This document shows, in pieces, positions 9,736 through 32,916 of a stretch of DNA of 32,916 nucleotides. Position numbers and translations under genes: made by a program. The notes under the pieces were generated by a model. It had not been told where the DNA came from. It worked only from the letters and a program-made list of their open reading frames with translations, and ran no database searches. Numbering within the stretch: position 1 is the first letter of the stretch; every line of letters begins with the position of its first letter. The stretch comes from Craspedostauros australis (lineage: Eukaryota): the NCBI GenBank assembly GCA_030167865.1, contig JALAGF010001461.1:1-32916 (forward strand), given 5' to 3'.

Positions 9736-12700
9736 ATGACGGGTTCATCGTCAGCGGAGATCATGGCGTCCCCGCAATCTGCTCTACCGCAGCACATGCA
9801 AACAAAGGCACAAACGCCGTCCTCAGGTCTCCAGAGCAACAGTCGCAACCAAAATCGGCTTCGATCCCACAGACCTTCCACCGACATGGACGTCGCAAAG
9901 CGAAGCGCATCGTTGGACGGTGCTGCGAATGCTGTTCAGCATGCTGATTACTCCGCTCGTGCCAAGGAAAGCACTCACTCGCAGGCGCAGAGGCAGGCGA
10001 AGGCAGATGATGCGGAGGCTGTGATCAGGAGAGATTCGTCGCAGGACATCATGCTTGCAAGTCTTCATGAAGGCGCAGATTTCCATCGCTCGACAAAGGA
10101 GCTATCCGGAAATGCTCGTACAATGCAAGACGATGAACGTAGACGAAAGCAGAAGCAGCTTCAGCAAACGCAACTTCAGCAACAACAACAACAACGCAAT
10201 CGGCTACAAAGACGCGCGCTGGACGAAGTGAAGCGCTCAGGCAATGGGAGCTGCAGATTCATCACGTCCCTCGAAACGCTGTCGCTGTCCACGCCGGACG
10301 CCATTCCAACATCGCATTCCGTCCAGGCCTTTGATGGGACCGTGTTCACCATCCAATCGCCAACGGATGTGCGCCTCATGGGATTCGAACTGTCGATTGC
10401 CTCCACCAGCGTGGGCACGGCGCCCAGCATTAGCATGTTCATCCGTCTGGGCGAATACGATCAAGCCATCGTCGCGGATTCCGAGGGTTGGATCCAGCTG
10501 ATTGACGATCAGGAGCTTGTGCCTGCGCCGGTGGAGTCAGACACCTACTCGATGCCCGTCTTCATAGCCCCCACCCAGAACTTCAAGTCGTTTGGCATGC
10601 AGAGAAATCGCGTGTATTCGGTCTACTTGGTCCTTTCCAGCGACGAAACGACCTCGTTACAGCTCGTGGCACCGCGCAGCCCGCTCAGCACGCCAACTGG
10701 TCCAACCATCCTGCGGCAGGACGACTACTTGCAAGTCAACACAGGCCTCGGCATCTTCGATATCGTGGACAAGACAACACCTTTCTCCAACGCGGTGGCC
10801 TCGCAGCTGCCCCTGTCTTCCGCAACCTCCATGATCGGGCGCTTTCACTACGTCACCACGCAACCCTGTAACGGACTCCGCACGCGGTCCAACATATACT
10901 GGGAATTCGCCATCGACGAGCAGAAGAGCGACAAGACGCGGCAGGAGATACTTGGGGCCATGCAGACGTCCGTGTCCAACGCCATGGGCGCCGTCATCGT
11001 GCTCAATGCCGACCTCATCCGGTACACCAAGTTCCACGGGTTGGAGAAGCAGGGGGAAGTCCGCACGCAACTGCTCATCCCGGGCACTGACGCTGGCGCG
11101 GATGGTGAGTGAATCTCTGCACTCCTTTTCATGTATTCGCCGCATGGAGCACCTGATGCATGTTCCATGGTGTGCGATTGGATGATGCAAGACCACAGAT
11201 GGGTTCTTCGTCGTCTATCATTCCATCATTTGTATCCTTCGTACGAGTGCAACAATAGAGTTCCGGTATGGATTGCATGGATGCTATGTATGTCGCGATG
11301 AGGCATGACATCATCTGATCTTCTTGTCTCACCTTCTTCTTGCGCTCTGCCTACTACCCAATGCTACTCTACATACATATGTACGAGTCCTCTGTTTCAC
11401 TCTCTCTTCTAATCTACCGGACACGTGCATGCATACATGTATATATACCCTCTTCGTCCCCTCCCTCGCGGCATGCCCCTGCAGAATACGAATGCCCGCT
11501 CACCATGCCCCAATGCTCCATCGGGATTGCCACAGTCCCTTACGACCACGCCATCTCATTGCTACCTGGCGAGCTCACCCAAACATTCTTGCAGCAGGCG
11601 GATACCATCGCCAGCAGCGTCACAGCCACCATGTCGTCCAGCTTCGCAGACACGGAGTACATCGGACATCCTCTTGCCACTGGTAAGTTCGTTGTATCCC
11701 TCGTGGGCGTCCCGTCGACGGACCAGCTCTTGAACTCTTTGCAACGCCGGTACGTGGAGCAGATCACGGCGGAGTTTTTTCAACAGTACCACAATCCCAG
11801 CGACTCCTTCAGCACCAACCTCCAACAGCGCCCCGTCGTGCTCATGGCTTCCATCACGGACGCAGTCGCCAGCGACGATACCAACTCGGCAAGCAGCAAT
11901 CGATATCTGCGAGGCACGCAACAACGCTTGTTGCAGGACGCAGCTTCGTCATCGGGGGAGTTGCAACTCGGCGTGGACATCACAGGCCTGGTCGATTCGA
12001 CCGACATCCGCGGTTTGGTGTTGCAAACCATGGAGAGCAATCCCGATGTTCTGCTGCATAAGTACTCGACGCAGTGGTATCGGCCGGGTGAGATCAACGA
12101 ATTGAATTCGGGAGAATTTTTCGGCCAGCTACAGAGCGTCTCTGTTGGACTGCAGCCTGCGGGATTCGGTCAGCCCCCGGCGACCTCGCCACCGGGCACC
12201 AGCAACGGTGGTGACAGCGGTATGGATGTGCAGGACAAATGGAAGATCGTTGCCATCGTCGGTCTCGTCGTTGGCCTGCTGTGGCTGCTGGTGCAGCTTT
12301 GGCGTGATTACATCGGTGACTTCCTGCGCGCGCACAGAATCTTGAAACCGAAGGAGCTGGAGGATTCTGCCACGACGGGCCTCATCTCGTCGTCCGACGA
12401 AGAACCTGACAGTCAGAAGCAACGTCGGATCTTCGGAATGTCGCTGCCGTCCATCCCCAGCGCCCACGCCGGTGGCGCATCGGACGATTGCAAGTCATTG
12501 GACGGCCTGGGCAAGAATTCCTCGCGAGCTCCCAAGCTGGGATCATCCAAGTCAGATCATGTCGCCAGCAAGTTGCAACGTCCGAAGAGCTTGGGAAACC
12601 TGGAGCATTTTCTGTCTGATCACACCTGTCCGTCTCCGGGGCAGCGTGATGGTGGCAGCGTCGACGGCAATAAGCCTCAAAATCGCGCTGGGCAGAATGG

Positions 12701-15041
12701 CCGCGGAGTCCGACCAACGCGCAGCATGGATGATTCCAATCTCGTCCTTCGCAACCGCCCTGGACGTGGCAACTCGCGCTCCAGATCGTTGGAACCGCAG
12801 CGCATGAACGGCCTGCGTCGTACCAAGAGCTTCGATCCCACCGACTCCACCTCGCCGCCATCCCGGAATCGAGCCGGCCAAAATGGACGAGGCGTTCGCT
12901 CCACGCAGAGCATGGACGTCATCTCGAAACGCAGTGCTCGCAGCGCTGCGAGCCATCGGTCACGCAGCCGATCCCCGAATCCTCAACGCCGCGTTATCCA
13001 ATCCACCCGCAGTTTGCCCATGCCCAGTCTGTCCAACTCTTCGCGCGGTCGCAACAAAAAGAAGCGTTCCTCCCAGCATTCCAGCGGGTCGACATCCTCC
13101 ATCGAAAGCGACGATTCCGACCTCGACTCCGACGATGACAGCAGCTCAAACGACAGCGACGATGGAAGTGAATTCGCGTACAACAGCAATCACGCCAAGA
13201 AGGCAATGTCCACATCGGCTCTCGTTCGTAACAGCACCCATTCCAAGGCGAGCATTGGCAAACGCAGCGCGCACAGGCCGCAAAAACCCAACAGTAGCAA
13301 CACCGACAAGGCAGGCAGCGATCGGGTGCTGGCCTCGGGTCGATTCAAATTGGAAGATTTTGAAGAGGAGGGCTCGCAGAGCGATAGTGACTGCAGCAAT
13401 GAATTAGCAGATGACGCGCAGTGCAACCGTTCCGTTTCCAGCGGTGCGCGCCGCGCCAAAAAGGGAACGAAGTTGAAAAAGAAGCGACAGGCCGACGCAC
13501 GATCTGCTGTGCACACCAAGGATTCCGGCAGTGACGTCTCGGGGAACAAGAGATTCAAGCCCAAGCCCATGAAAACGTCGAAGCACTCGCCTGTTCGCAA
13601 CAGTTCCACGGACAGCACCGAGGCCATACCTCGCAAGACGAAGTCACTGGATGATATCCGTTCTCCAACCTCGCAGCCCCCCAAGACCAAGCCAGCGAAA
13701 CCCAACCAGCCGGCAGATGACAAGCCAATGTTCAAAACACCAGGCAACAAGAAGAAGAAAATTGGCAAGGCCGGAACGAAGAAGAAAAAGAAGATCAGGG
13801 CCAAGGCCACAGGCGCTGGCACGGATGATGGCAGCAAGCAATCCAAGTCCACTAGCAACACTAGGGGCAGCGCGTCCGTCGGCAAGGTAAAGCGCAAAAA
13901 GGTGCTCGGCGATGGCAAGCAGCAGCCGAAGAAGTCGCCACCACCGCCCAAGAAGAAGACGAGCAAGGAATCGGTGACTAGCACGACAAGCGCAACCTCC
14001 AGCAGTCACGCTTCCAACCAGCCCGGCGTTGGCAGAGGCCGAGGCCGAGGTCCGAACAACACTGTTCCGCGCAGAGTGCCAAGCAAGGCATCTCAAATGC
14101 AAAAGGTGTCGGGCAAGGAGGATGAAGACAAACAGATCCCACCAAACCCGTCATCCAACAGGTCAGATCCAAAATCACACACTCGTACACATGGCCCCAA
14201 TGCGAGTAGAAGCAGGAGCCGGAGTAGGAGCCGCGGTCGCGGTCGCAGTAGTTCCCGCTCCATCGGCAGCCACGGCAAAGTTGGCCGAAGTGCGACGTCA
14301 TTCGGCGCTGTCGATTCCAACAATTTTGATCCCGAGTTCATGCCGAAGGAAGAAATGGACAAGTACCTGGCATCGCCAAAGTTCGAAAAGGAGTTGCTGC
14401 AAGTCGTTCCAATGAATGCCAACGAAGGCGGCGACGTGCTCAAGACCATGCGAGACAAGAAATACTTGGACCGCCTCGCTGCATCGAACGGGACACATCG
14501 GCTGAGGGGCGGTGCACCGTTGGCACCCAAGCGAAAGCCATCGGACGAGTTTGCCCCGCCTATCGCAGGACCAAGACGCAAGGCACCTGGTCGCAGCAAG
14601 TCATCTGATTTTGTGGAACGTCGCAAACCGCCTGGCCGTAGCAAGTCGTCAGACTTCGTGGAACGTCGAAAGCCACCTCCCAAGACCAAGTCGATGGATT
14701 ATGGCAAGCACGGAAAGATCAAGTTCAGCCGCCGCTTCTCCTCTGGCGGTTCTTCGTTGGGTGGTGATAACAACCACAATCCCGGTAGCAACAACGGGGG
14801 CAATTCAGATGGCCACAACGACGACGACGCCTCTCAAGAGTCCAGCATCTACCAGAAGCCACCGTCTTTACGAAAGGGCGAGAGGAGGAAGGTCGGCTTG
14901 CCGCTACCGTCCACAGGTCGTGGTGCTGTGGGTATCAGCGGCAACAACAGCAATGGGAACAGACTTCATTCGCATCTGGACAAGGGCGGTAAGGCCATGT
15001 CCGATGTTCGCAAGATGAGACTTGGCATCCAGACGAATTAG
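9736..15041 (+). CDS. Large single-pass membrane protein A, join(9736..11104,11485..15041), about 1641 aa: beta-rich N-terminal region, one TM helix, long disordered Ser/Arg/Lys-rich tail
   Basis: ORFs 9667-11112 and 11340-15041 join in frame across a GTGAGT...GCAG intron, giving ...GAD-E-YECPLTMPQC. Homologous throughout the folded part to 16837-22820 (GTVFTI/GAMFTV, RVYSVY/RVYSIY, GRFHY, LIRYT, LATGxFV, LNxLQRRYxEQ, YRPGEIN). TM segment WKIVAIVGLVVGLLWLLVQLW at 12240-12302. The start codon (caccATG 9736) is uncertain. Confidence 0.85.
11105..11484 (+). other. Spliceosomal intron, 380 bp, phase 1
   Basis: Donor G|GTGAGT at 11105 and acceptor pyrimidine-rich ...cccctgCAG| at 11484. Splicing restores the frame, and the paralog has an intron at the same position. 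Confidence 0.85.
14574..14699 (+). repeat. Coding tandem repeat, 45-bp / 15-aa unit x about 2.8 (RRKxPGRSKSSDFVE)
   Basis: Translates as RRKAPGRSKSSDFVE RRKPPGRSKSSDFVE RRKPPPKTKSMD. Confidence 0.9.
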
Positions 15042-16836
15042 CGTACCTCCAAAGCGTGCAGCTAACCAGGCGCGCAGGTGAATGCGTCACATTGACGGAA
15101 GCGGAAGCGGACGCTAGAGGGCGGCTGCATGTGGAGAATCACAGCGACATTCGAGTTTGCAGATTTGACATGGAAGTAGTCTCGCAACTCCTGCGTTTGG
15201 TACCCATATGGTACCACACATACGAGGACATAGAAAGACAGAGAGGAATTGTAGTATGTATTTTATGTCCTTGCGGATACGCACATGATTGCTTCAATTC
15301 TCTGTAAATCGAGGCGTCTGTAGCTAGTGGACTACTACTGATGCGTGCCTGTCGCCGATACTCGCTGGCACGGTGGCCGAGAGGACAAGCGCATCTTTAT
15401 CGAGTAGTTCGTTTTTGTAGTCGTTCTGGTAGCTCGTGCTTGGCGGGAGTCGATTCTGGTTTCGAGGATTCACTCGTGTTCGTCGACGTCGTTTGGAGTT
15501 CTGCGCATTGGTTGGAGCATGTGTGTTGCCGTAGCTCGAAACAGTGCTTTTGTTCGACGTGTTGGCGCGTGTGGTTGGTGGAGAACGCCGAAAGTCGCAA
15601 CAGGCGCAACTGAATTGTTTTTCCGTGATGTCAGTGGGAGAATTGTTGGTCATGACTTCTGTCCGACGGCATCAATGTCACTGTCCTTAGCAGCAGATTT
15701 GAATTTTAGCCATTGTTAGCACGTTTGATTCGACACACGCCAGGGACAATTTTCCTTTCGGACAATAAGTGACAATGCCGCCGTCGGCCATAAGTGGAAC
15801 GTGTGTTTTTCTGGTCACAAAACGAAATGCGAAAATCCACACTGTGGCAGCGTGCAGCGTGGTGGGTTGCGTGGACGATGGATGGAGGAGTTGGCGGGAG
15901 CAAACCGCCTTGATGTCCGGAAAGCAGGACAGGACGGTGTTTGGCAAAGCGGAAACGGGAGAGACCGAGGATGGAGGAAGAGAGAAGAGTTCAGCAAGGG
16001 GGAGGAAGACGGGGGAGCATCGCGAGAGATTGGATGAGGTGAGAAGAAAGGCGGAGGAGGAACCTTGGGAAGAAACCCCACAGAGGTGCAGAGAGAGAGA
16101 GAGAAAGACGCCGAAGGCATAATTGAAGGGCATCGGCGCGGACAGAGATTTCCTCCACAAATCGAGCAAACAAGGGAACCAGATTGGGAAGACCTCTGAA
16201 TCCGCATTGGCATTTCATACCTACCTGTACCCACACCTCATCCTTGTGCCTCCGAATTCCAGCCTCGTGCCACAAACTCTCGTTCCACCGCAAGGGAGCA
16301 AATCAAAAGTCGAGTCGAGCCTGGAACAGAGAGGACTTGAGGTCGCTGCCCCACTTGTGCGAGCACCTGCAGTGTTCACAGAGTCAAGCGCTCTTCACTT
16401 GCTCATCCATCCAAGGGACTTCCGCGCCATCACGGGCGCAATCACGAACACAATCGAAGAGAAGAGCACTCGGGACGTGCTTCATTGCTGGGTTGAGAGA
16501 GAGAGGGAGAAGGCGGGGCCGCCATCCACATCACCATCGCGAAACCGAAAGCGCCGCCGAAGAAGCTATTGCTCAAGCACATCCAACACAAAGTCGAAGA
16601 CTGGAGGAATTCAATTCCTTCGTGGGGTCGATGACCACAGCCGAATACCTTTCTGACAGAGCAATTGCAACCCATCATCTTCATCAGTGTCGAAGAGGTA
16701 GCCAGGAACGAAGGAAAGAAGCAAGTACAGCAAGCAACTCTTTGCTTCTACGAGCCACCAGCATCATTTGCGGACGAGTACAAGTCGCAATCAGAAGAGA
16801 CAAGTCGCACGATCTCAAGGAACACAACGAGCACAG

Positions 16837-19800
16837 ATGGGGCCACGACACCGTCACAATCCACAATCATCAGCACAATCATCAGCATCAGCATTCCATT
16901 CGTCATCGACAACAGACTTGTCAACGATGTCACAGTCCATCGACTCCCTGACAAGTGCCCATCGCACCGACACGGTCATCCCTGCATCAGAACCATCGAC
17001 ATCGACGTCTCATCCCCTCCACGAGGGTTTCGCACAGGATCCACAGCCCGTTTCAGCAACAGAGCCAACCTCGAGCAATAGCATCCATTCCATCAATGCA
17101 ATCAATGCAATCAATGCAATCTCACATGCCCACACACAGACCATCAGCAACTCCAGCACCAAAGGCAACACCAATCCCAATCCCAACAGAAATACAAATA
17201 GCAACTCCGGCATGCACTTGGACGCATCCGATGATGCCCTTAGTGCTGGCGCGGCTACTATGACAGCCCCCAGCAGTCAAACTCCATTGCATGAATACCA
17301 ACAGCAATATGAACCACAGACCAGGAGGCGGCTCGACGAGGTGCAGAAGGTCAATGACGAGAACTGCCGCCTCACGACCTCCATGTCCACCCCATTTCCA
17401 GGGAGCGAAGAGCACTCCGGCGCCATGTTCACCGTGCTCGCTGCCCAAGATATCCGCTTGGTCACTCTGGAGCTGGACGTGGCCATCGAACCCAGCAACG
17501 ATGCTGCCAAAGCCGACGTCCCCATCGAGGTGTACATTCGCAACGGCCCATACTCGGACGCTATTGCACGAAACAGAGCTTCGTGGAAACAGCTCACGTC
17601 ACCGAACACCCGAGTCACACCGGTCATCATGCCGAACGGACCAGGCGTCATCATCCCGCTCTCGAACATCCAATCCTACCCGATCGCCGCTGGTCGGGTG
17701 TATTCCATCTACGTTGCCGCTCCCAACTCCTCCAAGGTCAGGCTCCTGCCTCCGCGCAACCAGAACGACAGACCTGGAACCGTTCACTCCAAAGACGACC
17801 GGCTCACTGTCTACTTCGGCGTGGGCATCAACAACCGTGCCGAGGCCGCTGCATTTCCCGCTACCGTCACAACATCGCCAACGGCAGCGTTCGCCGGACG
17901 GTTTCACTACAACACCATCGAACCTTGCACCGAAGCGCGTGCCAGAACGCAGGTGCAGCTTGAGTTCGCCGTCGACACTTACGCCAGCGCCGCTTTGAAG
18001 CGTCTCAACGAAGCCCTGCAGGACACCCTGGTGGCTATCCAGGTCTTGAACCCCACCCTCATCCGATACACACGTTTCCAAATGCTCGACCTACAGGACG
18101 TCCAGTCAACTTATTGGCCCCGCAACAACAGCAACAAGAGGGATTTTGGTAAGTCGCGTGAAAACATGCTACAGTGTCATCGTTTGCGCATGCGTATCGC
18201 ACTTACGTACATGATATGGCTTGGTATTGTATGGCATGCGCGAAGATATCTCATTTGGGAGAGGCGCTTGATGTACCCGCAGCAAACGCTGGCACCACAT
18301 AACATTCCAAACCATTGGCAGATCCGCCTCTTTCAATTACACAATGCTGTCGCAACTCCCGCAACTCACGAAATATGTCGTGGCAACCACTCTACTACGA
18401 TTGACTTCCTTCCTTTCCACCACGCTGCACCACAACATGCCACGCCACGCTACCTACGTGCCATACGGTAGACAAGAAATGTCCCGAATCATTCACGAGC
18501 TGCGAGTTGATCACAGCGAACATTTCCTACCTGCACTCCGTGTCCTTACCGCCGGGTGATCTGATCGCTGCCATCTTGGAGAACGATGAAATCATCGCTG
18601 ACAGTGTCGTCGCAACGACATCGTCATCCGTCTCGAGATCATCGTCAACCGTGGTGGCCTCTGCGTCATTGCGCGGTGCGGCAAATGACAGCGGCACCCA
18701 AGAGATGGACACAGAGGGCATCGAAAGCCCTGTCATCGTTGAAAAGGCGTCCGGTTCGGGTGCTATTGCTACGTCAAACTCGAAGGCCAACTACGCATAC
18801 GTCGGGGAGTCATTGGCCACGGGGGATTTTGTCTTCACCCTCCAGCCGGTGCCGTACGATTTGCAACTCAATGCCCTGCAAAGACGGTACATGGAGCAGA
18901 CAATCACCAAGTTCTTCATGGAACGATCCGATGCACCCATCTGGAAGACAGCCATCACCGTGCAGGTGCCCGAAAGCGTCGCGGTTTCTGGTCTCGTCTC
19001 TTCCAAATCCCTCGTCACCAATGATGGCGGCAATGAAACCGACAGCAGTGCGGGAGGTGGATTGCGAGGCCGAGCTCGCATTCTGCAAGATGAGTCGACT
19101 CCCGAGTTCGGATACACGCAAATCGGGATGAAGATCACAGCGCAGGGCACGTCGCCGGGGTTGCGTAGCGACGTATTGGAGACCATGAACGATCACAATG
19201 CGTACCTCTCCCAACTCCTTTCGAGAGAATTTTACCGACCGGGTGAAATCAACTCGCTCGATTCAGGCCGTGTCTTCGCCGACATCAACCAAACCAGCGT
19301 CATCATCCAGCCACTGGATTTTGGAAAGAACATTACGGTCGCGACCGTCCCTGAGGATTCTGGTGCGCAAACCTACCCTGCATGGATCTACATCTCGACC
19401 GGTGGGCTCATCGTTGGCATCCTCTGGTTGGCGTACGTGGTTTGGAATGACTTCCTGCGAGACCAGTGGGTTGGAAGGTATCTAAATACTTCCAAGACCG
19501 TTGGCGAACGAACGGATAGCTCGGAAGAGACCGCATCCAAAGATGCAGCCCAGACAACAGCTGGACTCTTGGATCCAAATCGATTCAATCAAGACGACAT
19601 GGCATTGATCAATTCCTCGGCCATCAGGATTACGCGGCCCCATGTTACTCGTTCAAGGTCCATGCAGGGCCTCTTGGACATGAGTTTGGGCCTCAGCGCC
19701 GGCCCGCGAAGCCCGGACGGTTCGCAAGACTTTGCAAGCAACGAAAGTCGCCGACCCCAACTGGTCCGGCGCAAATCCTTCGGCGGAAGCTGCGAAAGCT

Positions 19801-22800
19801 TGCTATCGAATCGTGGACCACCCCCTGGTCGCACACCTGGTCCAAATCAACACCATCACTGCCACCCTCGCCATCACCCAGCGTCAAGATCAGGAATGCA
19901 GAAGCAACGTAGCTTCGATCAGCTCTATCCATCCTCTCGACACATGATAGGGCATGTGGAACCGTCACTGCCTCCGCCCACGGTTGATCACAATCGGCAA
20001 TTCCATCACGACCGCCAGGTCGGAGTACGGAAGGAAGCGGACCGTCGGCGGCCAAGTTTCGATAACTTTCTGAAGGGTATGATGGGCCAAACTAAGGGCG
20101 CGGAAACCACGTCATCGGCACCGCCACCGCCACCACAGCACCATCAGCCAAAGCAGTATCAACAGAAGCAGCATCAACAGAAACAACAAAATAGTCACCC
20201 TCGCCAGTCAATCCAAACCGTGCACGCCCGTTCCTCCGTCGGAGGGCAGTCAATGTTCGCAGCCGCCCCCAACAAGAGCCCTCAATTCGTTGGAGATTGT
20301 GATGACTGGCAAAATCCATCAGCCTTCAATGCCAAGTCCTTGGATCGTCGTAAGCGCAATGCGCGCCGCGACTCGACGGAGTCATCCGACTCGGACAAAA
20401 GCCAGAGCGTGCGACTCATGGATGAACTGTCGTCCAGGTCGCTGTCCACAAAGGGGAGCTTGGTCCAGGATATCGCCTCCCGTGACCTGAACGATAAATC
20501 AAGCCGGCATTCCAACGGCTCCAAACCGGAGCTCGCCAAGGCCCCGAGCTACATGGTCAAAAGCAAGAGCAAGCCTACCATCCATGGTGGCCCGAAGGCA
20601 GCAGGCAAACCGGACAGGTCACGGGGCAAATTGATGGAGCAAATCCCCGCAAAAACGAATCCATCAGCCACTGCGTCAGATTCAGACTACGATAGCGCCA
20701 GCGATGATACCGAAGACAGCGCCATCAATACTCAACTTGACACACTCTCGAGTTGCGAGACTCTGCTGTCACGGGCATCGGGTGGAAAGAAGAATGCTGA
20801 CGTACTGAAGAAGAAGAAGTTGACGTTGAAGATCGTAAAGTCCAGCAAGGAAGCTACCAACGTGAAGGTCAATACCAGGTGGAAATCTGTGTCGAAACTC
20901 GAAGATGCAGGAGTTTCTGTCACCAAGACGCCGATCAGCTCCAGCACCAAGCTGGACAATGAGGCAAAGTCACCCCGAACCTTCCTGGATACAAGCGCAT
21001 TCCAATCAGACGAATTCACGCCATCGGGATCCGTGGCGACAGGCACACATCTTGTCGACTCAGGGCGGTACCTGAAGGTGGGCGACAGCTTTTCCGATTC
21101 ATCATCCTTGATCTACGGCAAGACACCCAGGAACAAGAGGGGCGATGCTTCGATCCGAAGCGATGTCAGCAAGCAAAGTGCGCTACTGATGAACGCTGGA
21201 TCGGGTTCACCGGAGTTGAGTCCAAGGTTGGACTCCTCCGAGCCGCTCATCAAATCGCCTGCCGGGTCCACCAGCACCCACCGAGGCAGACGACACGCTC
21301 ACGAGTCTGCCTCGTCGAATGCGAGGAGCAAATCAAAAGACCGCTTGAGCACACAATCGAAAGCTCCGAAGCGATCAAAATCTCGCGACAAGCTGTCCAA
21401 GTTCCAACCATCGAAGAGTTCGACGGCTGCTGTGGACCCATCCACAGCCACGTCGTCACTCCACTCCAAAAGCGGTGTTTCTGCGAAGGGTAAAAAGAAA
21501 AGTGAGAGCGAGGGCAAGAAGCTCAAGCGGTCGTCATCCAGAGATAGATTGGCGAAGGTCAGGCCCAAATCGTCATCTTCGGTATCGCAGCAATCGCTCG
21601 TTGGGAATTTGGATGAATTCATGAGCGCGGACACGAAGCAGCGTGGTAAGTCCGGCAGGAAAGATGCCCGCAGCGTTGCTAGCATGAGATCGCAACAAAG
21701 CCGTGGCACAGGACGCCCGAGCCACCACCGCCGTGATAAGCCCATGAAGCGAAGCCGTTCGCGGCAAGACATGGACAGCGGGTCTGTTGCACGCTCTGTG
21801 GCCAGTACGGATATGATCCGACGTGACGACAACGCAACATCTCACAGTCGGAGGAGCCTCCAGCCAACGCAGAGCGGCAAGATGCGCCCGCGAGGACGTC
21901 GCGATGCCCGGAGCAAGAGTCCTTCCCGCATGGAACCGCCCCAGATGACTCGCGGTCGCAGCCGAACAGATCTAGCACGCAGCCGAGGCCGTAGCCCCCA
22001 CGACCGATGCCGCAGGCCAAGCCTGGACTCAACAAGGTCATTTGACTTCCAGCAGGATGATCGCACAGTGGGAAGCCGAGCAAGCGTTCAGTCCGGCATC
22101 AGCCGCGATAGTGGAGGGCGAAGTCGCTGCTCGCGCAGCCCGTCGGGGCGACGACGTCGTCCGAGCATCCAGATTGATCTAGCGTTTGGTGATTCCTACG
22201 GGGACCTGAGGGATTCAACTACCCACAGCCGAACTAGCGTTCAGTCTATCGGAGCCAGGCAGAGCTCTGCGGACAATTCCCAAAGACGAGCGCGATCCAA
22301 GAGCCCAGGCCGACAGATATTCCGCCATGGCAACAGCCACGCGCAAGAGCGCAACCAACACGCAAACCATGAGGAGTTCGACTGGAATCCTGGTCGGATT
22401 GGCCGCAGGAGCTCTCATGGTCGGATGGACGAGAGAGATTTCAAACACGCTCATGGTCACAGCCATCACCAAACACAGCAGCAGCAACAACAGCTACAGC
22501 AGTACTCGAGGCCTTCAGGGTCGGGTTCTGGGAGGCCAAGGCAGCATGCAGGTCAAGGATACGGATCTTCCTACGCGACAGCTGCGTCATCTGCCTCAAC
22601 TCGAATTGATATGGCAGGGCTAAGCCATCAATCGAGCCGCGGCTCGGGATCCAGGCACTCTCGCTCTTCCTGGGTGTCCCCGTCGTACCAAGTGTCGGCA
22701 TCATCAGCCCAGCAACCTCAGCTGGACGATAGCGGCACATTCTCATCCGACGATTCTGGCATTCATGAACCGTTCGGATCGTCGTTGGCGGTCATGTCCC

Positions 22801-22820
22801 CAACGTACGAGTACTATTGA
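16837..22820 (+). CDS. Large single-pass membrane protein B, join(16837..18148,18472..22820), about 1886 aa, tandem paralog of protein A
   Basis: ORFs 16768-18471 and 18507-22820 join in frame across a GTAAGT...TAG intron, giving ...KRDF-D-KKCPESFTSCELITANISY, which matches EYECPLTMPQCSIGIATVPY of paralog A. TM segment WIYISTGGLIVGILWLAYVVW at 19383-19445. The start could instead be ATG 16927. Confidence 0.85.
17092..17121 (+). repeat. 9-bp tandem repeat (ATCAATGCA) x3.3, encoding INAINAINAI
   Basis: atcaatgcaatcaatgcaatcaatgcaatc. Confidence 0.9.
18149..18471 (+). other. Spliceosomal intron, 323 bp, phase 1
   Basis: Donor G|GTAAGT at 18149 and acceptor TAG| at 18471. Splicing restores the C-P-x5-C motif shared with paralog A. 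Confidence 0.85.
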
Positions 22821-23361: not shown

Positions 23362-25185
23362 TCACGGTTTAGGCGGTGCCTTTCGCCGCTTGCGTCCACC
23401 GATCAAGACGAACATCAAATACGGCAGGAGTATGGGAATGCCGCAGCAAACCCCAGGCAACACCAACATGGAGGTAAGCGTGATGCAGACCCCCACAAGT
23501 CGATGCACCGGGTTCGGCGTTCCACGATAATTGTTGCATGTCCAGCTTCCGCTATCAGTTGTGCTGTCAATACCATCGACTTTCGCTTTGTGCTTTGATG
23601 GCACGTGACTGTCAGATAATGCCTGGAAGGACCATGACTGATACAACAACGGCTGTGGTGGCGACGGCGATGCCAATCCATCTTCGTAACTCCCCCAAAT
23701 GCGAGCATGGACGATCTCGCTGTCCCAATCAAATTCCAATTCTCCAAAATTGAGCTCGGTTGCGCACATCTGCGCGTCCGTTGCTTCGTCAGTGACGATG
23801 TCTGTCCACGGGTTGACGAAATTCGCGATAGCTGTGAGCGCATTCACATGAATGTGTAAGATGAGTTTGAGGATCGTCCCGATGGTGCTGTTGCGATCCG
23901 ACAGCAACGGAACGGCACGGCCAAACTTCTCCGATGCTCCCCATGCATGCGTCAGTCCGCTGGTTGTCATTTCCATGAGGGTGCGGCGTTCGAACGCATG
24001 CGGCAGTGTATTGTCCGTGCCCTCAAGCCTGGTGGACGGAGCTCTGAAACAGTCCTTTCTAAGAAACTGCGCGAAGTGGACATCGCCCGAAATGATGATA
24101 TTTGCTGCAGCGCTGTTGTGGGTGTCATCGTCAGCAAGTGAAGATGACATTAGGATGGTGTTGTAGAGTCGAGCTTGCGCGGTTGGGTACTTTCCCCAAT
24201 CCTCGATAATATTGCCATCGTAAATGCGATCGGCGTGGACCTGGACGCCGCTGACAAATACGTGGATGGCAGCGCTCGAACGTCGTACTGACCGCTCCAG
24301 CCATTCCCATTGCTCTTCGCCCAAGAAATCACCTCGCACATCATCCTGCCAACGATGCGGGAGAGTCGTCTTCCACGGTGTTTTGTTGGTGCGCACATCC
24401 AGAACGAATACCGCAACCCGTCTGTTGTTTCTGGATGCCGGAGTCGATGGATTTGACGATGGCATCGCGCAAGTTGCGTTCTTCATTTGCGCGTCTTGGC
24501 TGTGACAGCGTTGTTGCGTGACTTGCAGAATGTCGCTGCCGTCTTCAATCCCAGCTTCCGCATCCGAAAGCGTCTCCTCACCGCTGCGACGATCAAAATC
24601 GTACACTCGCACTCCGTACACACCCCGGCCTTGCTGCGCTCGTCGATACATGGCGGAATCCTCTGGGAGATTCAAGAAATCACGAACGAAAACGAAGCCG
24701 TTCATTCTCCCGTGCTCGAATGTCGCGTCGCCGTTGTTCCTCCCGTAGTCATGGTCGTCGATCGTCCCAAAGACATCGATTCCCGTGTCCACAAAGTGGG
24801 TGTAGTTTGGCTGTGCATGGCGTTGATGCAGCAACAGATGACTCAAATAATCGGGCGTTGCATCCCGATACCGCCAACGATTCCGTGGCTTCTCCCCTCG
24901 CTGTTGCTCCAGGGGATAGGCGTGCCCATCACTGAGATCATCACCGCCGTTGCTGTCGCTGAACTCAGAAGTGCTTTTGCGGTCGTCTGCATAAACAGCA
25001 TCACCGCCCCAAACGAAACCAGCCGCGTCGCGTCGTTCCATGATTGGCCACAGCGGCTGCGGGTGGAGCTGACTGCTGCATGATCCAAACAGCAAACGTG
25101 AGGCTCTTGCACGCTCTGTGGTTGCCGCCGGCATGCCTTGAGTTGTTGGGGGGATGGGGGTATTCGGAGATGAGGATGACCACAT
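23362..25185 (-). CDS. phoD: PhoD-family alkaline phosphatase / metallophosphoesterase (607 aa) with C-terminal transmembrane anchor
   Basis: PhoD motifs appear in the expected order: FGSC, WGGDAVYAD, DDHDYGRNNG, LDVR, LGEEQWEWLE, EDW, ISGDVH, EMTTSGLTH, NFGELEFDW. Ends with the hydrophobic segment LVGVCITLTSMLVLPGVCCGIPILLPYLMFVLIGG followed by RKRRK. Confidence 0.92.
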   Translation of the reverse strand: MWSSSSPNTPIPPTTQGMPAATTERARASRLLFGSCSSQLHPQPLWPIMERRDAAGFVWGGDAVYADDRKSTSEFSDSNGGDDLSDGHAYPLEQQRGEKPRNRWRYRDATPDYLSHLLLHQRHAQPNYTHFVDTGIDVFGTIDDHDYGRNNGDATFEHGRMNGFVFVRDFLNLPEDSAMYRRAQQGRGVYGVRVYDFDRRSGEETLSDAEAGIEDGSDILQVTQQRCHSQDAQMKNATCAMPSSNPSTPASRNNRRVAVFVLDVRTNKTPWKTTLPHRWQDDVRGDFLGEEQWEWLERSVRRSSAAIHVFVSGVQVHADRIYDGNIIEDWGKYPTAQARLYNTILMSSSLADDDTHNSAAANIIISGDVHFAQFLRKDCFRAPSTRLEGTDNTLPHAFERRTLMEMTTSGLTHAWGASEKFGRAVPLLSDRNSTIGTILKLILHIHVNALTAIANFVNPWTDIVTDEATDAQMCATELNFGELEFDWDSEIVHARIWGSYEDGLASPSPPQPLLYQSWSFQALSDSHVPSKHKAKVDGIDSTTDSGSWTCNNYRGTPNPVHRLVGVCITLTSMLVLPGVCCGIPILLPYLMFVLIGGRKRRKAPPKP

Positions 25186-25933
25186 TCACACGTGGTTCCA
25201 TCGCTTCCTTTGTGCGGTGTCTGAAGCGAGTGGGAACTCTTTGTCGACGACTTGCACATCCTGCATCTTACAAATACACATCGCGGTTGCGCGCATGGCG
25301 CCAGAATAGATCGTGCAGATAACGCGCCCTCGCTCCCTCTGTGGAAACCTTCATGGATCTGTCCCGCGATGCGCACAACGCCGTAGTCGTACGACTACAA
25401 GAATTGGTGCACTCCTGACGACGCCAAAGTGTCGCCAGACAATGACTGCGGCTTCTCTTCTTCCATCGCTTCGCGTCACAGTTTCCAAGTGTTCGCTTTT
25501 ATATTTTGTCGATCCAAGATTCGTTGTGACGTTGAGCATCGGACGGCGGACTGTCCAACATGAGACCTGAATGCATGTCCCGTCGGATCTGTATCAGACC
25601 GAATATATGCTTGTTAATGAAGAATCGAATCATGATACGGTCGCCGTACCGACAGATCACTTTTCATTCCCGACAAGTCATTCGGATTCTCGACGGACGC
25701 GAATTGTCCTCGAGTATCGCGCGGGCTTTGGTTGTCCGTCTATCACAGGCTAATGTCGAATCTAGAGACGGTAGTGGGCAGAGAAATCGCCAACAAAATC
25801 GACCAACAAACACAACAACAAGAAACAAGAAACAAAAACAACCGAAATCCACACACAAAAAAGAGACGTCGCAAAACACGCCAGAACCCAAAGATTGACA
25901 GCACCCATCATCGTCCCTTCGCTGGTACACGTC

Positions 25934-28244
25934 ATGGATCATCAACGGGTTGGCGACCAGCCCTCGCCCATGGCCAACGTGGATGGTGATGGAAGTGGTG
26001 CTGGTGCGTCCACTCAGCACCAGGCGTCCCAGAGGCCTCAACAGGAACAACCCCACTCGCAGAGCCCAATGAGGGATGGATCACCAAAAACGCCGCAGAG
26101 GCATCCGCAGAGGCAAGCACGAGCGTCTCAGCAGATCCAACAGCAACAGCAACAGCAACATCAGAAGCAAGAAACAAAGCCAACGATCTTCGGCGCTTAC
26201 GATGATCTCCTCGTCAAACGGCATCAGATCGAAGCTCAGCAGCTGGGTGGTGTCATTCCGCTCCCATCTCACGTGATTGGCAACCCCAGTGATCAAGATA
26301 GCCTCAAGGCGCAAGTCAAGATAAGATGTGACTGTTCTGGCAACGCATGCTTGAAGGTGTGTACAAATATGCTTCCTCTGTTCTGCTCTGCATTGCATTA
26401 CATTACATTACGCGTACTATTGTGCTCCGCTCTTGTCATCACATTGCTTGGCAGTCTCTTTTCGTTCGGTCACGTGCCCAAGCGATCGATCATTGGCTTG
26501 TCTTCGTCCACGCTCACTGAGCCTTGGCTCACGCTCTTTCGTACTACTTTCAGGTTACATGCATGATACATACATGCATGCATGCATGCATGCATGCATG
26601 CAAACGTACTCGCACTCGCGCTATTCTGCCGTACGAGTACTGACTCACCAATGTACATTGCTCTCTTTCTTCATCTCGACACGCCTGGTACCCACGAGAT
26701 AGCTCTACTGCAAGTGCTTTGCCAGTGGAATCCATTGCAAGTCCTGGTCATGCGGATGTTCCGACATGTGGTGCCGCAACAACGCCCTACATGAAGAGTA
26801 CTCCGTCCCGCTGCCACCAAGCATGATGGCCTCAACCACTGAAAACTCATCGACGGCGCCGTCATCCGCTCCACTTTACCGCAACCACGCAGTCCTTCTC
26901 GAGCTGCATCGCAATGTGATTGCGTTTCGATCGCCGCCAGCGTCGTCAAAGACGAGACCTTTCGTCGCTGGTGGGGCTTCGATTTCAACTACGGCGAATT
27001 TGAATTCTCATTTTGCTACTGCTGATGCGGCGGCAGCGGCGGTGGCGAGTACAGCATCCAATCAGATGCCCTCTGGCCAGCAGCAGCAGCAGGAGGCAAA
27101 TCACGAGCAGGGCCGCTCGGCAAACGAGACAGCAACAAATCATGACAAAAAGAAGGTACTGGCGACGGTTGCCACAACGACAACAGCGGCAGGCCCGGCA
27201 ACCAATACGACTCCTATGGCTGCTGTGGCTGCTGATGGTATCTTCGCACCCATGCCAACCAAACGAACAGTGCCATCAGAGGCGAGAGAGAATGTCGCAG
27301 GCAAAGAAGAAACAAGAAAACGCCATCCTTCAGCAGCAGCTGAAGTGTCGAAGGTGCCGCTGAAGTTTCTTCGATCCTCTCTTTATGGCAGGGGCGCTGT
27401 CCCGGAAGGGATGCTGTTCTTCGAGCGTCAGATGGGAAAAAAGCGCAAGCGCCAAGATAGCAAGCACCGACCAGTTACGGGACACGCACCGATCGGGCAA
27501 TGGTTTCATCTTCAGGATTCCCAAAGTCGTGACCCACAGCGACAGCAACAGGCTCCGGTTCTCTCTCAAGAGCATTTGAAGAGCCTGGAGATCAACACAA
27601 CAGTGAATGCAGCGTCTACACTTCAGTCCCAACTCCCACTGACGCAAGCACCACTTTCCTCGTCGTCTTCTGCATCGGTCACATCGTCTCTGAAGGCGAT
27701 TATGCAGCGCATGGCGCAGACGAGAGAGACGTTGAAATGTCACATCAAGGCGCAACAACAACGGCAACGCCGATCGCGACAGGAACCTATCCACACATTG
27801 CTTTGTGACGAAGACATCGACGGTGATCCATCGAGTTCTGTGAACCTTCCGTCACCTTTCAGCGAGATGGATCGCTTGGTGTGTCGGGAAGAGATTGAAG
27901 ATGTTATTTGGCACAATGTCGAAGGCGATCATCTCATCATTGATCAAGCAACAGAACAAGAGGTCTATCCCGAAGGGGCGTTGTTTTGCGACGAAGATCT
28001 GGCAACGATGGATGATCTGAAAGGCAATGAACTCCTTCGGGCAGGGCCGTGCGGAGAACAGTCAGACCCAACAAAGTTTCGTCGCGTTGGCAAAAATGCA
28101 CACATCTGCCAACGAGCCATTCGAACTGCAGAACAGGTTTCGCTACTTCAAGAACTCACGAGCTGTATTCGGAGGAAGGCGCTGGAGCTTGCCAGAAAGC
28201 GACTGCAAATGGATCGACCAGCAGTCCAACCTCGGACAATGTAA
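25934..28244 (+). CDS. CRC/CXC-domain (LIN54/tesmin/TSO1-like) protein, join(25934..26356,26703..28244), about 654 aa
   Basis: Splicing reconstitutes a 9-Cys CXC domain, CDCSGNACLK|LYCKCFASGIHCKSWSCGCSDMWCRNN. It is followed by RNHAVLLELHRNVIAFRSP, which resembles the CRC linker RNPxAFxPK. Also has a basic NLS-like KKRKR, three LxCxE motifs and a C-terminal helix (AEQVSLLQELTSCIRRKA). Confidence 0.88.
26357..26702 (+). other. Spliceosomal intron, 346 bp, phase 0, interrupting the CXC domain
   Basis: Donor AAG|GTGTGT and acceptor gaTAG|CTC. The join gives the conserved CLKLYC motif and is in frame with ORF 26766-28244. Confidence 0.88.
26558..26602. repeat. (CATG)n microsatellite inside the CRC-gene intron
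   Basis: catgcatg-atacata-(catg)7-ca; the unit is self-complementary. Confidence 0.95.
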
Positions 28245-28525
28245 AATGGGTGGTACGAGCATGACGCGTAAGCGTCCGTGCATGTTGCAGAGCGCGATTC
28301 CCCTCGAGTATGGCCACGCAACGTACTCGTACTAAGAATATTGTACTACTAACATGTATTGTACTATTATATGTGCAGTTGGCATCTCAGCACGAGAATA
28401 CAGTGCCACAGAGGACGTCCGCACACACAGCATGCATTGCTTCACGATTCGTACTCTACTCGTATGCAGTTTGCGAGTATTCCTAGCACATCATGTCATC
28501 GGACATACTCGCATTGCAGAATTCT

Positions 28526-29995
28526 CTAGGAATTGACACCCAAACCAGCGAATTCACAGCATTGGTGCCAACGATCAATCTGCGTCTTCACAGCTGCCAC
28601 CATTGCGTGTGCGGGGGCGCACACCAGAGACTTGCGCACAAACATTTGATCGTCAAATGATGCCATGCTTGCGGCTTCCGCGGCGATATCTGTCCCCAGG
28701 TAGATGTAGGAATGATTGACACCAGCGATTGCTGCCAACCGTCCGAAAAATTCGCTCCAATCGTAGGCACGCGGCAACACTTCGATCACCGAACTGCAAC
28801 GATGCATGAATGGGATCAATGTGAGTTGAGCGCCATGCGGCGTCAACAAGATGTCTACGGTATTGAATGCCTCCACTTGTTGCTCGAACGACATGTTTTC
28901 AATGAAGAAAACAGGCGGTCTGTATGGCAACTGAAGGTCCTTCTGGAAGAAAATGGCAACCTTGTGCGCACCCAACATCCGTCTCGTGCCGTTGCGGTTG
29001 GCGATGGCGATGCGGGGTGGGCGGAATTTACTTCCTGGGATGCTCGAGGCAACGCCTCCATTCGCTTCACCAGTGCCCGCAGCTGTGCTCGTCGTCTGGG
29101 ATGTGCTCATTCCATCGCCTGGTTGAGTCCTTCCACAAGACTGGTCGATATGATGACCCATGCCAAGGGCAGCCAATGTTCGCCGTCTCAGGTATTGCAA
29201 GTCATCATCGTACACTGTCTGGTAGCCCTCGATACGATGCGCGTGCGCTATGAGAAGTTCGTCAAGGTGTGATCTGTGGTCACCTTTGAAGAACTTTACG
29301 TGCTGTTGAATCAAGGTGACATTGCTGGCCTTCAACACTTTGACCATGCCCTCGGTGAAAGCGGAACCTTCAGTCATCTGGCCAAAGAAGGGCTTCCGAG
29401 CTATGAATACGTGGTTGGCGTCAGGGAAATGCCGCCACAACGACCAGCACGGGAAAATCTGTTGCATCTGGTGTGGGAAGTGATGGACATACGTGTGGTT
29501 TTTCACGGTGCATACGACCGTCTTGATTTGCTTCTGCCGACCATTCTCGGTCCCAACAACCTTCGTTTCAGCGCCATGAATCGTCGCGGCGTCGACTTGA
29601 TTCCAGGCCTCGGTGAGGTTGCCGTAGATGTCCCCGAAGACGCTCAGCAAATCGTACGATGTGGGATAGTTCGTGACATTGAAGGTGTGCGGTATTGAGA
29701 TATTCAGGATGTTGCATCCGTTGGCATCAAAAGGATCAGTCGGCCACTGCAACATGAAGGCAGGGAATTCTGTGATGTTGCGCGTCCATCGATCCGGATG
29801 CTCAGCAAGTAGACCAGTTGGATGTTTGAACGCATTGCCCAATGTGAATGGATCATCGGCGTATTTGGAACTGTTCAGCATCCGCAAAGAGATGGTCCAG
29901 GTCATCAGGCTGAAACCGAAAATGGAAAGGGCCACGATGAACCTCACGGCTTTCAAGCTGCATGGAATACCAGAGTTCGCGCTCCGAGACGACAT
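28526..29995 (-). CDS. Glycosyltransferase family 61-like (DUF563) type II membrane protein, 489 aa
   Basis: N-terminal signal-anchor (FIVALSIFGFSLMTWTISL), HHFPH motif, PRIAIANRNGTRR, and MSFEQQVEAFNTVDILLTPHGAQLT...VIEVLP, which matches the GT61 C-terminal signature (Q...F...D..I.PHGAxLT...VIE). Several N-x-S/T sequons. Confidence 0.85.
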   Translation of the reverse strand: MSSRSANSGIPCSLKAVRFIVALSIFGFSLMTWTISLRMLNSSKYADDPFTLGNAFKHPTGLLAEHPDRWTRNITEFPAFMLQWPTDPFDANGCNILNISIPHTFNVTNYPTSYDLLSVFGDIYGNLTEAWNQVDAATIHGAETKVVGTENGRQKQIKTVVCTVKNHTYVHHFPHQMQQIFPCWSLWRHFPDANHVFIARKPFFGQMTEGSAFTEGMVKVLKASNVTLIQQHVKFFKGDHRSHLDELLIAHAHRIEGYQTVYDDDLQYLRRRTLAALGMGHHIDQSCGRTQPGDGMSTSQTTSTAAGTGEANGGVASSIPGSKFRPPRIAIANRNGTRRMLGAHKVAIFFQKDLQLPYRPPVFFIENMSFEQQVEAFNTVDILLTPHGAQLTLIPFMHRCSSVIEVLPRAYDWSEFFGRLAAIAGVNHSYIYLGTDIAAEAASMASFDDQMFVRKSLVCAPAHAMVAAVKTQIDRWHQCCEFAGLGVNS

Positions 29996-31596
29996 GATGT
30001 CTCGGTCTCTGAGCAGAGCACCCTGAGTCTACGGTGTGCTCGATTATGTTATGATGTCTGGTGCGGATTGTCGTATGATACGGTCAATCTTAGTTGATCC
30101 CGACAAGTGGGTACATCAACGACCCACCAATGTGGGAAGGAATTGGTTGTCGATTCATCGGCATGCTCCAAGTACTCGGACAGCAGAACACGCCAGCATG
30201 GTCGATCGAGTGAGCCATGGAACCGACATGTCATGATGATGTCGGATGGGTTTTATGACTTGTCCTGACTTAGTGCCAATTTCCGAGTTGGGCCTAGTTA
30301 GGACACACTATCTCCACCAGCGCGTTAGAGCCGCGAGTCCAAACAAGTGAGTCCTTGCGTGAGCGAAATTAATGCGCTCATTCGACACCAGGATCCACTA
30401 ACATGCACAAAACGTACAACAAGGACACAGTGGATAACCAAGCAAGACGGGGCGCAAAATCAGACACTTGCCATGTTCTCATGACGATCCGATCTTGCAT
30501 TCCGCTTGTCACCATCTGATCTGACGCAAACAACACTCCATCTGCAAGTGCATTGCCTCCTTCTGTCATCCGTTGCTGCAACCAATCAGATTGTAGCTCT
30601 CAACAAGGCCGAATTGGCTCTTCCTTGCTCTGGATCAGAAGATTCGGGTCAGATCTCCAAGGAAAGGATATACATCGACTGCTCCACAGGAGCAGGAGGT
30701 GTCCTGTTTGGTTCTACCAAAGAACAGCTTATCCCATGGCTCTGCATGCTTGACTTTTGTATGACTCCTCAAGTTGGACAACCTTTCATCATAATCCACT
30801 TCGATTGTAATTCACAACCTATTGCAATTACTCTACAGTTTACATCTATCAAGTTCACCTTGCCCTGCCTGGTTCTCAACAACAAGCGGTCTCAAGCCGG
30901 TTGGGAACAGGCCATCTCAGGGAACATGTCCCCGAAAGGCACGAAACATTCACTGGCCTCATCTTGACGAGACCTGTCGACGGACAGGCGGCACCACGAG
31001 TCCAATTCGACAAGCAGTTTCGAAACCGAAACGACGATGCGCGTCTGGCTGAGCAGCTTCTCATTCGTGGTGCACCAACCGCGAAGCTGAAGCGATGTTG
31101 TTGTTGTTCATGAGAACGGGCTGGTCTTCCCACGCCATCGAACTCGGCACGTGCTCGAGGCACCATGCGCACAACGACCTTCCCTTACGAGCTATTCCAT
31201 GAACATATAATATAATATTATATTCTAATCGCCTATTCAATGCTACAATACAATGCTCGTTCGTGAGAATACGACAAGAGGGTCGCTGCAACTGCTGGAC
31301 TCCATCTGTGACGATTGCCATCTTTCTTCACCAACGACCGGAGACGCACGTCATATTATTGCATGAACTGATGGTGCACGAAAATTCGCGCTCTACGAAA
31401 CCATGATCTGAAGTCAGCGTCACAATTATCAATACTCTAAATAGCATCTGATAAAGTTGTCAGTATCTGAGGGGGGATGATTACTAATGTGATTTATGAC
31501 CGGGAGGGACGATCTTTTCTGTGCTGTCCTGTGGTTGCCACGGCATCTGTCATTGTCCGTGGGCAGTATGCCAACAGAAGTGGCCCCACCAGTTGC

Positions 31597-32916
31597 TCAA
31601 TCAGTGAATCCGCAGCACTGGTGCCATCGATCGATCTGCACCTTGACGGCTTCCACCATCGGATGCACTGGGGCGCAAACATTGTACGCCCGCGGAATCT
31701 TCTGCCCCTCGAATGAATTGAAAGGCTCCGTCTCCGCCACCACATCGGTCCCAAGGTAAATGTAGGAATGGTTGACACCGGACAGCGCTGCCAGCCTCCC
31801 AAAAAACACTTGCTCCGAATAGGCGCGTGGGAATACTTCGATCACCGAGCTGCAACGATGCATGAACGGAATCAACGTGAGTTGCGCACCATGCGGCGTC
31901 AGTAATATGTCGACGTTGTTGAATGCCTCGATCTGCTGCTCGAACGTCATGTGCTCGAGAAAAAAGACCGGCGGTCTATACGGCAGATGGAGCTCCTCCT
32001 GCAGCAGCGTGGAAATATTGCGGCCGCCAAACATTCGCCTCGTGGTGTTGCGATTGGAAATGGCGATGCGAGGTGGGCGAAGGATCTGGTTGTTCAGAAC
32101 CTTCGCCGCGCCGCTTGCTGTTGTGTTGGCGTCGGCTATCAATGGTATGAGCAGGTTGGTATGCTCCGTATTGGGCGAGGGAGGTACTCCGCAGGACGGT
32201 TCGAGGTAGCGCTCCAAGCCAAAGACAGGCAAGGCATGCCGTCTCAGATGATCCAGGTCGTCCTCGTAAACTGTCCGATAGCCATCAATGAGGGTCGTGT
32301 TCGGGTACACGTAGAGGAGGTCGCCTGGGCGAGCACTAAATTCGTATTTGAACCTTTTCACGGTTCTTCGTTGGATTGTGATGTTGTTCGCATTCAATAC
32401 CTTGACCATGCCCTCCGTGAAGGCGCTGCCACTTGTGAACCAGTCATAGTAGAGCTTTCCAACAACGAAGACATGTTCAGCGTCTGGAAAGTGCCGCCAG
32501 AACGACCAGCAGGGGTATATGTTTTGCATCTGATGCGGAAAGTGATGTAGGAACCAGTTGCGAGAAATGCCACACGCGGCCGTCTTGACTTCCGTGACAG
32601 GGGCTTTCCGACGCCGCCGTCGAGTGTTGTTCGTGTGAACAGCATGAACTGTTCGGACCGTCCTACTGCCATTTGCAGCGCCGGCATGTTTCCATGCCCT
32701 CTTGAGATTCCCATGAATGACAATGAAGACGTCCTTGATGTTATACGATTTTGGATAGCGAGTGACGTTGAAGGTGTGCGGCAGCGAAGTGTTGAAAACG
32801 CTGCATCCTTCGGGTCCAAAAGGATCGGTTGGCCAATCCATCATGAACGAGGGGAATTCTGTGATGTTCGTGTTCCACCGGTGGGAATGATCGGGGGTTG
32901 GCTCTCTTGGGGGGCT
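31597..32916 (-). CDS. Glycosyltransferase family 61-like protein, paralog of 28526-29995, 5' end outside the window
   Basis: The frame stays open from the window edge (SPPREPTPDHSHRWNTNITEFPSFMMDWPTDPF), matching HPDRWTRNITEFPAFMLQWPTDPF of the paralog, so ATG 32844 is internal. Shares the identical block DILLTPHGAQLTLIPFMHRCSSVIEV and the QIDRWHQCC terminus. Confidence 0.87.
   Translation of the reverse strand, partial: SPPREPTPDHSHRWNTNITEFPSFMMDWPTDPFGPEGCSVFNTSLPHTFNVTRYPKSYNIKDVFIVIHGNLKRAWKHAGAANGSRTVRTVHAVHTNNTRRRRRKAPVTEVKTAACGISRNWFLHHFPHQMQNIYPCWSFWRHFPDAEHVFVVGKLYYDWFTSGSAFTEGMVKVLNANNITIQRRTVKRFKYEFSARPGDLLYVYPNTTLIDGYRTVYEDDLDHLRRHALPVFGLERYLEPSCGVPPSPNTEHTNLLIPLIADANTTASGAAKVLNNQILRPPRIAISNRNTTRRMFGGRNISTLLQEELHLPYRPPVFFLEHMTFEQQIEAFNNVDILLTPHGAQLTLIPFMHRCSSVIEVFPRAYSEQVFFGRLAALSGVNHSYIYLGTDVVAETEPFNSFEGQKIPRAYNVCAPVHPMVEAVKVQIDRWHQCCGFTD

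Follow-up and report, generated by a model that had tools for sequence, protein, structure and literature searches.

Three clustered LxCxE motifs in a LIN54/TCX-like protein of the diatom Craspedostauros australis, a candidate retinoblastoma-docking subunit of a DREAM-type complex

Does the diatom Craspedostauros australis recruit its retinoblastoma-family protein (RBR) through a LIN54-type subunit, and what would such a subunit do with three docking motifs? The question is raised by a gene in contig JALAGF010001461.1, which was analysed over its whole length of 32,916 nt (hereafter the window) and for which an original prediction had proposed a LIN54/TCX-like CRC protein with three LxCxE motifs shortly before a C-terminal helix. 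For the control of diatom G1 arrest by light, nutrients and sex pheromone via RBR, the gene supplies a concrete candidate RBR partner with three mutable sites; one diatom study states, in its accessible part, that RB regulation was not assessed (PMC8027222).

The gene was modelled with two exons, and the N-terminal part of its product comprises the following features:
25934-26356, plus strand: exon 1, 141 aa, with a presumed ATG at 25934, encoding a Gln/Pro-rich low-complexity N-terminus and then the first half of a CXC subdomain.
26357-26702, plus strand: putative phase-0 GT-AG intron of 346 nt, splitting the CXC.
26558-26602: (CATG)n microsatellite inside the putative intron.
26640: CTRAC branch-type site, one in the putative intron.
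26703-28244, plus strand: exon 2, 513 aa plus stop.
26327-26780, plus strand: one CXC subdomain (TCR/tesmin), N-terminal in type and with 9 Cys, dependent on the predicted splice.
26880-26936, plus strand: remnant of the inter-CXC helix and of the RNPxAF linker (RNVIAF), with a weak BLASTP match to the oomycete LIN54 protein P0069 (E 0.02).
27438-27452, plus strand: KKRKR basic cluster, a possible nuclear localisation signal.

The predicted splice joins ...CDCSGNACLK to LYCKCF... and yields a two-exon protein of 654 aa. Seven AG sites occur in the intron, of which only the last leads into a long open frame, and this same site completes the CXC. It is through this predicted splice that the CXC and the LxCxE motifs are joined in one protein, sequencing run X1 being without coverage of the intron. 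In a search of positions 25000-29000, X1 contigs end at 25219, 28332 and 28403, near where the gene is predicted to end on either side, as would be expected of transcripts (a single study, taken as RNA by guess only).

The Cys of the CXC lie at residues 132-165 of the spliced model, and the LYC motif retains its minor-groove Tyr. The exon-2 half of the CXC matched Pfam TCR (PF03638) with E 0.0059 and 17.3 bits, below the cut-off of 23.5, and the spliced CXC aligned to plant, oomycete and diatom CXC with 28-33 bits. Together with the BLASTP match of the linker, these comparisons bear out the predicted LIN54/TCX-like character. A second CXC is missing, with no Cys from residue 166 to 486 of the spliced model, and no other CXC-like frame was found between 24000 and 30000 of the window. 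The designation as a CRC protein thus holds for one CXC subdomain, split by the putative intron, but not for a full tandem CRC. The linker remnant reads RNVIAFRSP versus RNPxAFxPK and stands about 28 residues farther from the CXC than usual (spacing 68, versus 38-43 in 181 of 188 counted cases). We therefore describe the protein, from its sequence, as LIN54/TCX-like but not as a canonical LIN54, which would carry two CXC; the missing subdomain lowers the case for the latter and leaves that for a protein working like the RB-docking part of LIN54 unaffected.

Upstream of the gene, and divergent to it, lies a PhoD-like phosphatase (23362-25185, minus strand), and downstream are two tandem genes of glycosyltransferase family 61 (28526-30028 and 31597-32916, minus strand). 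At 9664-15041 and 16702-22820 (plus strand) the window holds a tandem pair of paralogous units for which Pfam gives no convincing match. Each is composed of a first frame (31% identical over 300 aa between the units) followed by a long one that encodes a hydrophobic segment and a long tail rich in Ser/Arg/Lys; they are probably two spliced genes for membrane proteins. Frames at 2038-2910 (minus strand) and 7120-8058 (plus strand) have a common YCTRGLEK block and are seemingly paralogous, with no confident Pfam match.

The motifs, found exactly where the original prediction had placed them, fall within 62 codons and all lie in the plus-strand open frame 26703-28244:
27798-27818, plus strand: motif 1, LLCDEDI, with its LLCDE core at 27798-27812 (residue 507 of the 654-aa spliced model).
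27876-27896, plus strand: motif 2, LVCREEI, with its LVCRE core at 27876-27890 (residue 533).
27981-28001, plus strand: motif 3, LFCDEDL, with its LFCDE core at 27981-27995 (residue 568).

They are spaced by 26 and 35 residues and have the extended form L-x-C-x-E-[DE]-[IL] in common. The downstream acidic residues that had been predicted are present, three per motif at +5 to +14 in all three, although these patches are modest. With the L, C, E core, a hydrophobic residue at +2/+3 and an acidic tail, 3/3 motifs have the features of RB-cleft ligands; a hydrophobic +2 residue and an acidic tail mark higher-affinity binders of the cleft, according to the accessible part of a recent preprint (10.1101/2022.06.10.495386). 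Only motif 2 has an upstream Ser-Pro site (-8/-7), and it carries Arg at -1 and at the second wild-card position. An SP in the plant and oomycete register, six residues before the motif Leu, is absent; in motifs 1 and 3, a Pro occurs at -4 but lacks an accompanying Ser/Thr.

By chance, 0.06 LxCxE would be expected in the whole protein. In composition shuffles of the whole protein, three motifs arose in 3 of 100,000 cases and three within 70 residues in 0 of 100,000; when the shuffling was confined to the final 160 residues, which are acid-rich, three motifs appeared in 1 of 200,000 cases, and when it was confined to the 91-residue motif segment, in 0 of 200,000. Across the long open frames of the window and ten loci of the same genome (25,547 residues), five LxCxE occur, three of which are these. 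A DNA pattern of the extended motif, built from these three motifs and hence post hoc, matched 230 times on both strands of the 65.9-Mb genome, and among the first 100 of the 230 matches listed only these three adjoin within 1 kb. The 21-nt cores are identical to each other at 12-16 of 21 positions and the upstream 30 nt at only 4-8 of 30, which fits selection on each copy of the core. A recent tandem duplication was ruled out, the flanks being unalike and the motifs free of tandem repeats. An X1 contig spans 27431-28332 with 0 differences to the window, which makes an assembly error an unlikely source of the motifs (X1 possibly stems from the same sample). The triple LxCxE cluster is a real, non-random feature.

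The tail was further described by a single-sequence AlphaFold2 model, no Pfam family covering it:
27681-27782, plus strand: predicted helix before the motifs (fragment residues 28-61, pLDDT about 50-56).
28101-28211, plus strand: C-terminal helix, from AlphaFold2 (fragment residues 168-204, pLDDT 50-69) and hhalign.
28131-28175, plus strand: core of the C-terminal helix, EQVSLLQELTSCIRR, a candidate contact to LIN9/MuvB.

The model, of low quality as a whole (mean pLDDT 43), has the order helix, low-confidence segment with the three motifs, helix. The pLDDT is below 50 over fragment residues 56-183, a weak indication from a single-sequence model, which places the three motifs in a predicted disordered stretch. 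The motifs thus stand before a predicted C-terminal helix, as had been proposed, and a motif-plus-helix tail is also conserved in oomycete LIN54.

A diatom ortholog was found by none of the searches. Exon 2 gave no relative among 8,000 scored candidates from 5.8 billion proteins, and phmmer no match among 1.84 billion representatives; an Atlas search returned no usable match for the tail and, for P0139, plant TCR clusters only. Two ORF versions of the gene were absent from the protein collection, and 0 of 8 candidates from viral contigs proved related. Two metagenome loci (L021, L022) were rejected as spurious, as the match runs antisense to an unrelated long frame and comes without CXC or LxCxE.

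A profile search with the CXC yielded 2,972 proteins. Among the 120 listed, 17 carry one LxCxE and none carries two; 6 of the 17 have it inside the CXC, 1 is unrelated, and 10 have SP-x4-LxCxE near the C-terminus. Of these last ten, found by the CXC alone, nine are named oomycetes. The 120 listed proteins include 7 CRC proteins of named diatoms, all without LxCxE, and these, where placed, fall in families of the genome's other TCX paralogs. A profile of the tail matched 48 of 7,995 candidates, comprising 37 named proteins, all from oomycetes ranging from Peronosporales to Saprolegniales, and 11 unnamed ones. Exactly one LxCxE and a terminal helix were counted in 48/48 and a hydrophobic +2 residue in 48/48, with an upstream SP/TP in 45/48; the motif count is partly circular, since the profile contains the motif, although the first ten came from the CXC alone. 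As to copy number among CRC relatives, on which the original prediction also touched, a single LxCxE is the rule in the oomycetes sampled, and no relative with two was seen among the 120 listed. In its commonest form, the oomycete motif is preceded by an SP at the same distance as in SPxTxALMCDE, the ALM consensus of plants. That every oomycete LIN54 sampled has an LxCxE in the plant register suggests that stramenopiles, too, have the LIN54-RB contact which has been described as a plant shift. The oomycete homologues (P0049-P0161) have one LxCxE and a near-invariant terminal helix; one of them, P0129, carries the source label 'RxLR effector candidate', yet reads as the C-terminal part of a LIN54 and is probably mis-annotated.

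These relatives also bear on whether the Cys-acidic repeats could serve otherwise, in metal binding or as an acidic activation domain, the LxCxE match being incidental. Acidic-hydrophobic stretches like those of the tail are typical of activation domains; against this, the motif is invariant in oomycetes, and plant members of the family bind RBR through an identically placed copy of it (PMC8500230, accessible part). We regard such an incidental match as very improbable.

Comparison of the tail with that of oomycetes was mixed in strength. With an oomycete-only profile, hhalign placed both motif 3 and the C-terminal helix in register at E 0.0023 and a probability of 12.7%; among 149 tiles, other TCX paralogs included, the same profile put the tail of the diatom protein in 1st and 2nd place. 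An HMM of 10 oomycete tails gave E 4.7 for the motif-bearing frame, which a two-block PSSM ranked 4th of 92,860. The C-terminal helix resembles the oomycete LIN54 terminal helix QERAVLQEFSVWLRN; taken alone, it scored weakly, coming 15th-33rd among 125,230 positions and 1st-2nd among the 3,526 that lie within CXC-bearing frames. From motif 3 to the helix core there are 54 residues, versus 20-64 (median 51) in oomycetes. Judged by the whole architecture, the tail of the diatom protein is likely homologous to the oomycete tail, although statistically this is not secure.

Motif 3 is the copy aligned with the single oomycete motif, and, occupying what would be the ancestral position, it might be the only one at work, with motifs 1 and 2 as recent, strain-level or neutral by-products of a fast-evolving acidic linker. 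This would agree with its being the sole copy at the usual distance from the helix, with the two Arg of motif 2, and with the fact that no ortholog shows extra copies. Two further full-consensus cores are, however, very improbable by chance, and their flanks bear no trace of recent tandem duplication, so that we consider a lone functional motif 3 distinctly unlikely.

For RBR docking, a partner has to be encoded in the same genome. One RB-family gene was found there, as the original prediction had presupposed, at a single RB_A locus (G000:C3316); it matched the human RB pocket with E 8.6e-22, its own pocket spanning frame residues 757-1196 approximately, and its YGICK and FYN cleft segments align with human RB (the second alignment being short and weak). 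In human RB numbering, we take the cleft positions to be Y709 and Y756. K713 and N757 are named residues of the RB cleft, N757 being essential for LxCxE binding (10.1101/2022.06.10.495386, accessible part). The genome also encodes LIN9 (LIN9/DIRP, E 1.9e-17) and E2F/DP (E2F_TDP, 5 matches at 4 loci). For LIN52 and LIN37, the genome search gave no match and was equally silent for the positive controls. At least four other TCX loci are present, and LxCxE is absent from the CXC-bearing frames of four of them; five is a minimum for the TCX loci of the genome, as this intron-split gene itself escaped the genome searches run with TCR and an oomycete LIN54. No paralog of the protein tail or of exon 1 was found in the genome. 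The CXC of one TCX paralog shares 79% identity with proteins of Seminavis and Pseudo-nitzschia. The TCX paralog on G000:C4090 (L011:1763-4525, plus strand) has a terminal segment that we presume, by eye, to be F-box-like.

Our preferred reading, to which we assign a probability of roughly 0.55, is that the protein is the RBR-docking LIN54 subunit of a diatom MuvB/DREAM-type complex, like TCX5/6 in Arabidopsis. At least one motif very probably binds RBR, and we think it reasonably likely that all three are functional; that the protein belongs to MuvB is favoured to a similar degree. It probably works mainly as a retinoblastoma-recruiting adaptor. Each motif would be able to insert into the single B-box cleft of RBR, such that the three might act as alternative, partly redundant docking sites for one RBR, with a gain in local concentration and in rebinding; they may be tuned separately, as only motif 2 has kept an upstream Ser-Pro. 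The C-terminal helix, which we take to resemble the animal LIN54/MTL5 helix, would join LIN9 by analogy with mouse MTL5. In that protein, the last helix binds LIN9 (PMC8386835, accessible part).

Human LIN54 needs both CXC for tight binding to the CHR, with 430 nM versus about 500 μM for one (PMC4974476, accessible part), for which reason the diatom protein, with its one CXC, probably binds DNA weakly as a monomer. With weak DNA binding, promoters would be targeted either by E2F-DP, by way of RBR, or with the help of a second TCX as partner; TCX dimerisation has been reported in Arabidopsis. Counting against the preferred reading are that no search found a diatom ortholog, the weak likeness of the tail to that of oomycetes and the loss of the conserved SP register, as well as the absence of LxCxE from the 7 named diatom CRC proteins listed, the search without match for LIN52 and LIN37, the joining of CXC and motifs by a predicted splice only, and the meiotic function of Arabidopsis TCX5/6 without their motif.

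The same weak DNA affinity could be made good differently if one chain held two or three RBR at once, as a multivalent scaffold that bridges or clusters E2F-DP-RBR units on a promoter, where avidity via E2F sites replaces the lost DNA affinity. Separate pockets could be accommodated by spacings of 26 and 35 residues in predicted disorder, each of the three cores has the full consensus, and it is the same protein that lacks the second CXC; on the other side, the low-confidence AlphaFold2 model puts motif 2 inside a helix, and the HCMV UL97 kinase has three LxCxE that are individually dispensable, which fits redundancy (PMC2636798, accessible part). Such a scaffold appears doubtful to us. Its furthest extension, a DREAM rewired in this diatom lineage, is just as speculative: a LIN54 that had given up sequence-specific DNA binding would be a clamp on two or three RBR-E2F-DP, targeting MuvB via E2F sites only. 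The motifs of plants and oomycetes, alike in their SP register, would then go back to a single ancient link between LIN54 and RB, older than the LIN52 solution of animals.

The missing half of the DNA-binding unit, the high motif density, the strong divergence and the lack of detectable relatives would also suit a LIN54 derivative that acts outside the complex, titrating RBR from its LxCxE partners in the manner of viral oncoproteins, for example during sexual or diel arrest. However, the terminal helix-like segment, the nine CXC Cys and the Tyr are all retained, no viral relative was found among the eight viral-contig candidates, and none of the other TCX found in the genome bears an LxCxE, which suggests that this one is a working subunit. 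Moreover, E2F uses another surface of the pocket than LxCxE, and LxCxE binding alone leaves E2F in place. We therefore rate an RBR decoy or inhibitor as quite unlikely.

In the literature searched, which mostly excluded subscription papers and comprised the accessible parts of PMC6927116 and PMC8027222 among others, the triple LxCxE, the loss of the second CXC and the conservation of LxCxE in oomycetes are unreported, and the search found no publication joining oomycete, LIN54 and retinoblastoma. RB docking via LxCxE in LIN54 is already known from plants, and a triple LxCxE, too, has a precedent in an RB binder: like the diatom protein, HCMV UL97 has three LxCxE in one RB-targeting protein, but as an unrelated viral kinase without family relationship.

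A close parallel is provided by Arabidopsis TCX5/TCX6, type 2 TCX proteins with the ALM motif SPxTxALMCDE, in which the single C-terminal LxCxE expected for some plant TCX is indeed present and is required for binding to RBR1 in yeast two-hybrid (PMC8500230, accessible part); in Arabidopsis meiosis, TCX5/6 function without the LxCxE motif (PMC13674485, accessible part). Like these, the diatom protein is of the CXC family, carries LxCxE and is encoded in a genome with RBR, LIN9 and E2F/DP, and the context of motif 3, GALFCDE, resembles their ALMCDE. It differs from them in its three motifs, where they have one, in its one CXC, where they have two, and in the absence of SP at -6/-5; their RBR binding was demonstrated by two-hybrid, that of the diatom protein being a prediction. 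With oomycete LIN54 (Phytophthora, the Pythium group, Aphanomyces, Saprolegnia) it has in common the order of CXC, helix, LxCxE with +2 hydrophobic residue and predicted terminal helix with LQE core, as well as the motif-to-helix spacing, while the overall likeness of the tails is weak and the oomycete proteins differ in their one motif (48/48), their 2-3 CXC if full-length and their upstream SP/TP (45/48). Like human LIN54 and mouse MTL5/tesmin (PDB 5fd3), it combines a CXC bearing the DNA-reading Tyr with two predicted C-terminal helices; these differ in their tandem CXC, and human LIN54 also in having no LxCxE, the human contact to pocket proteins being the LxSxExL of LIN52 (PMC8500230, accessible part).
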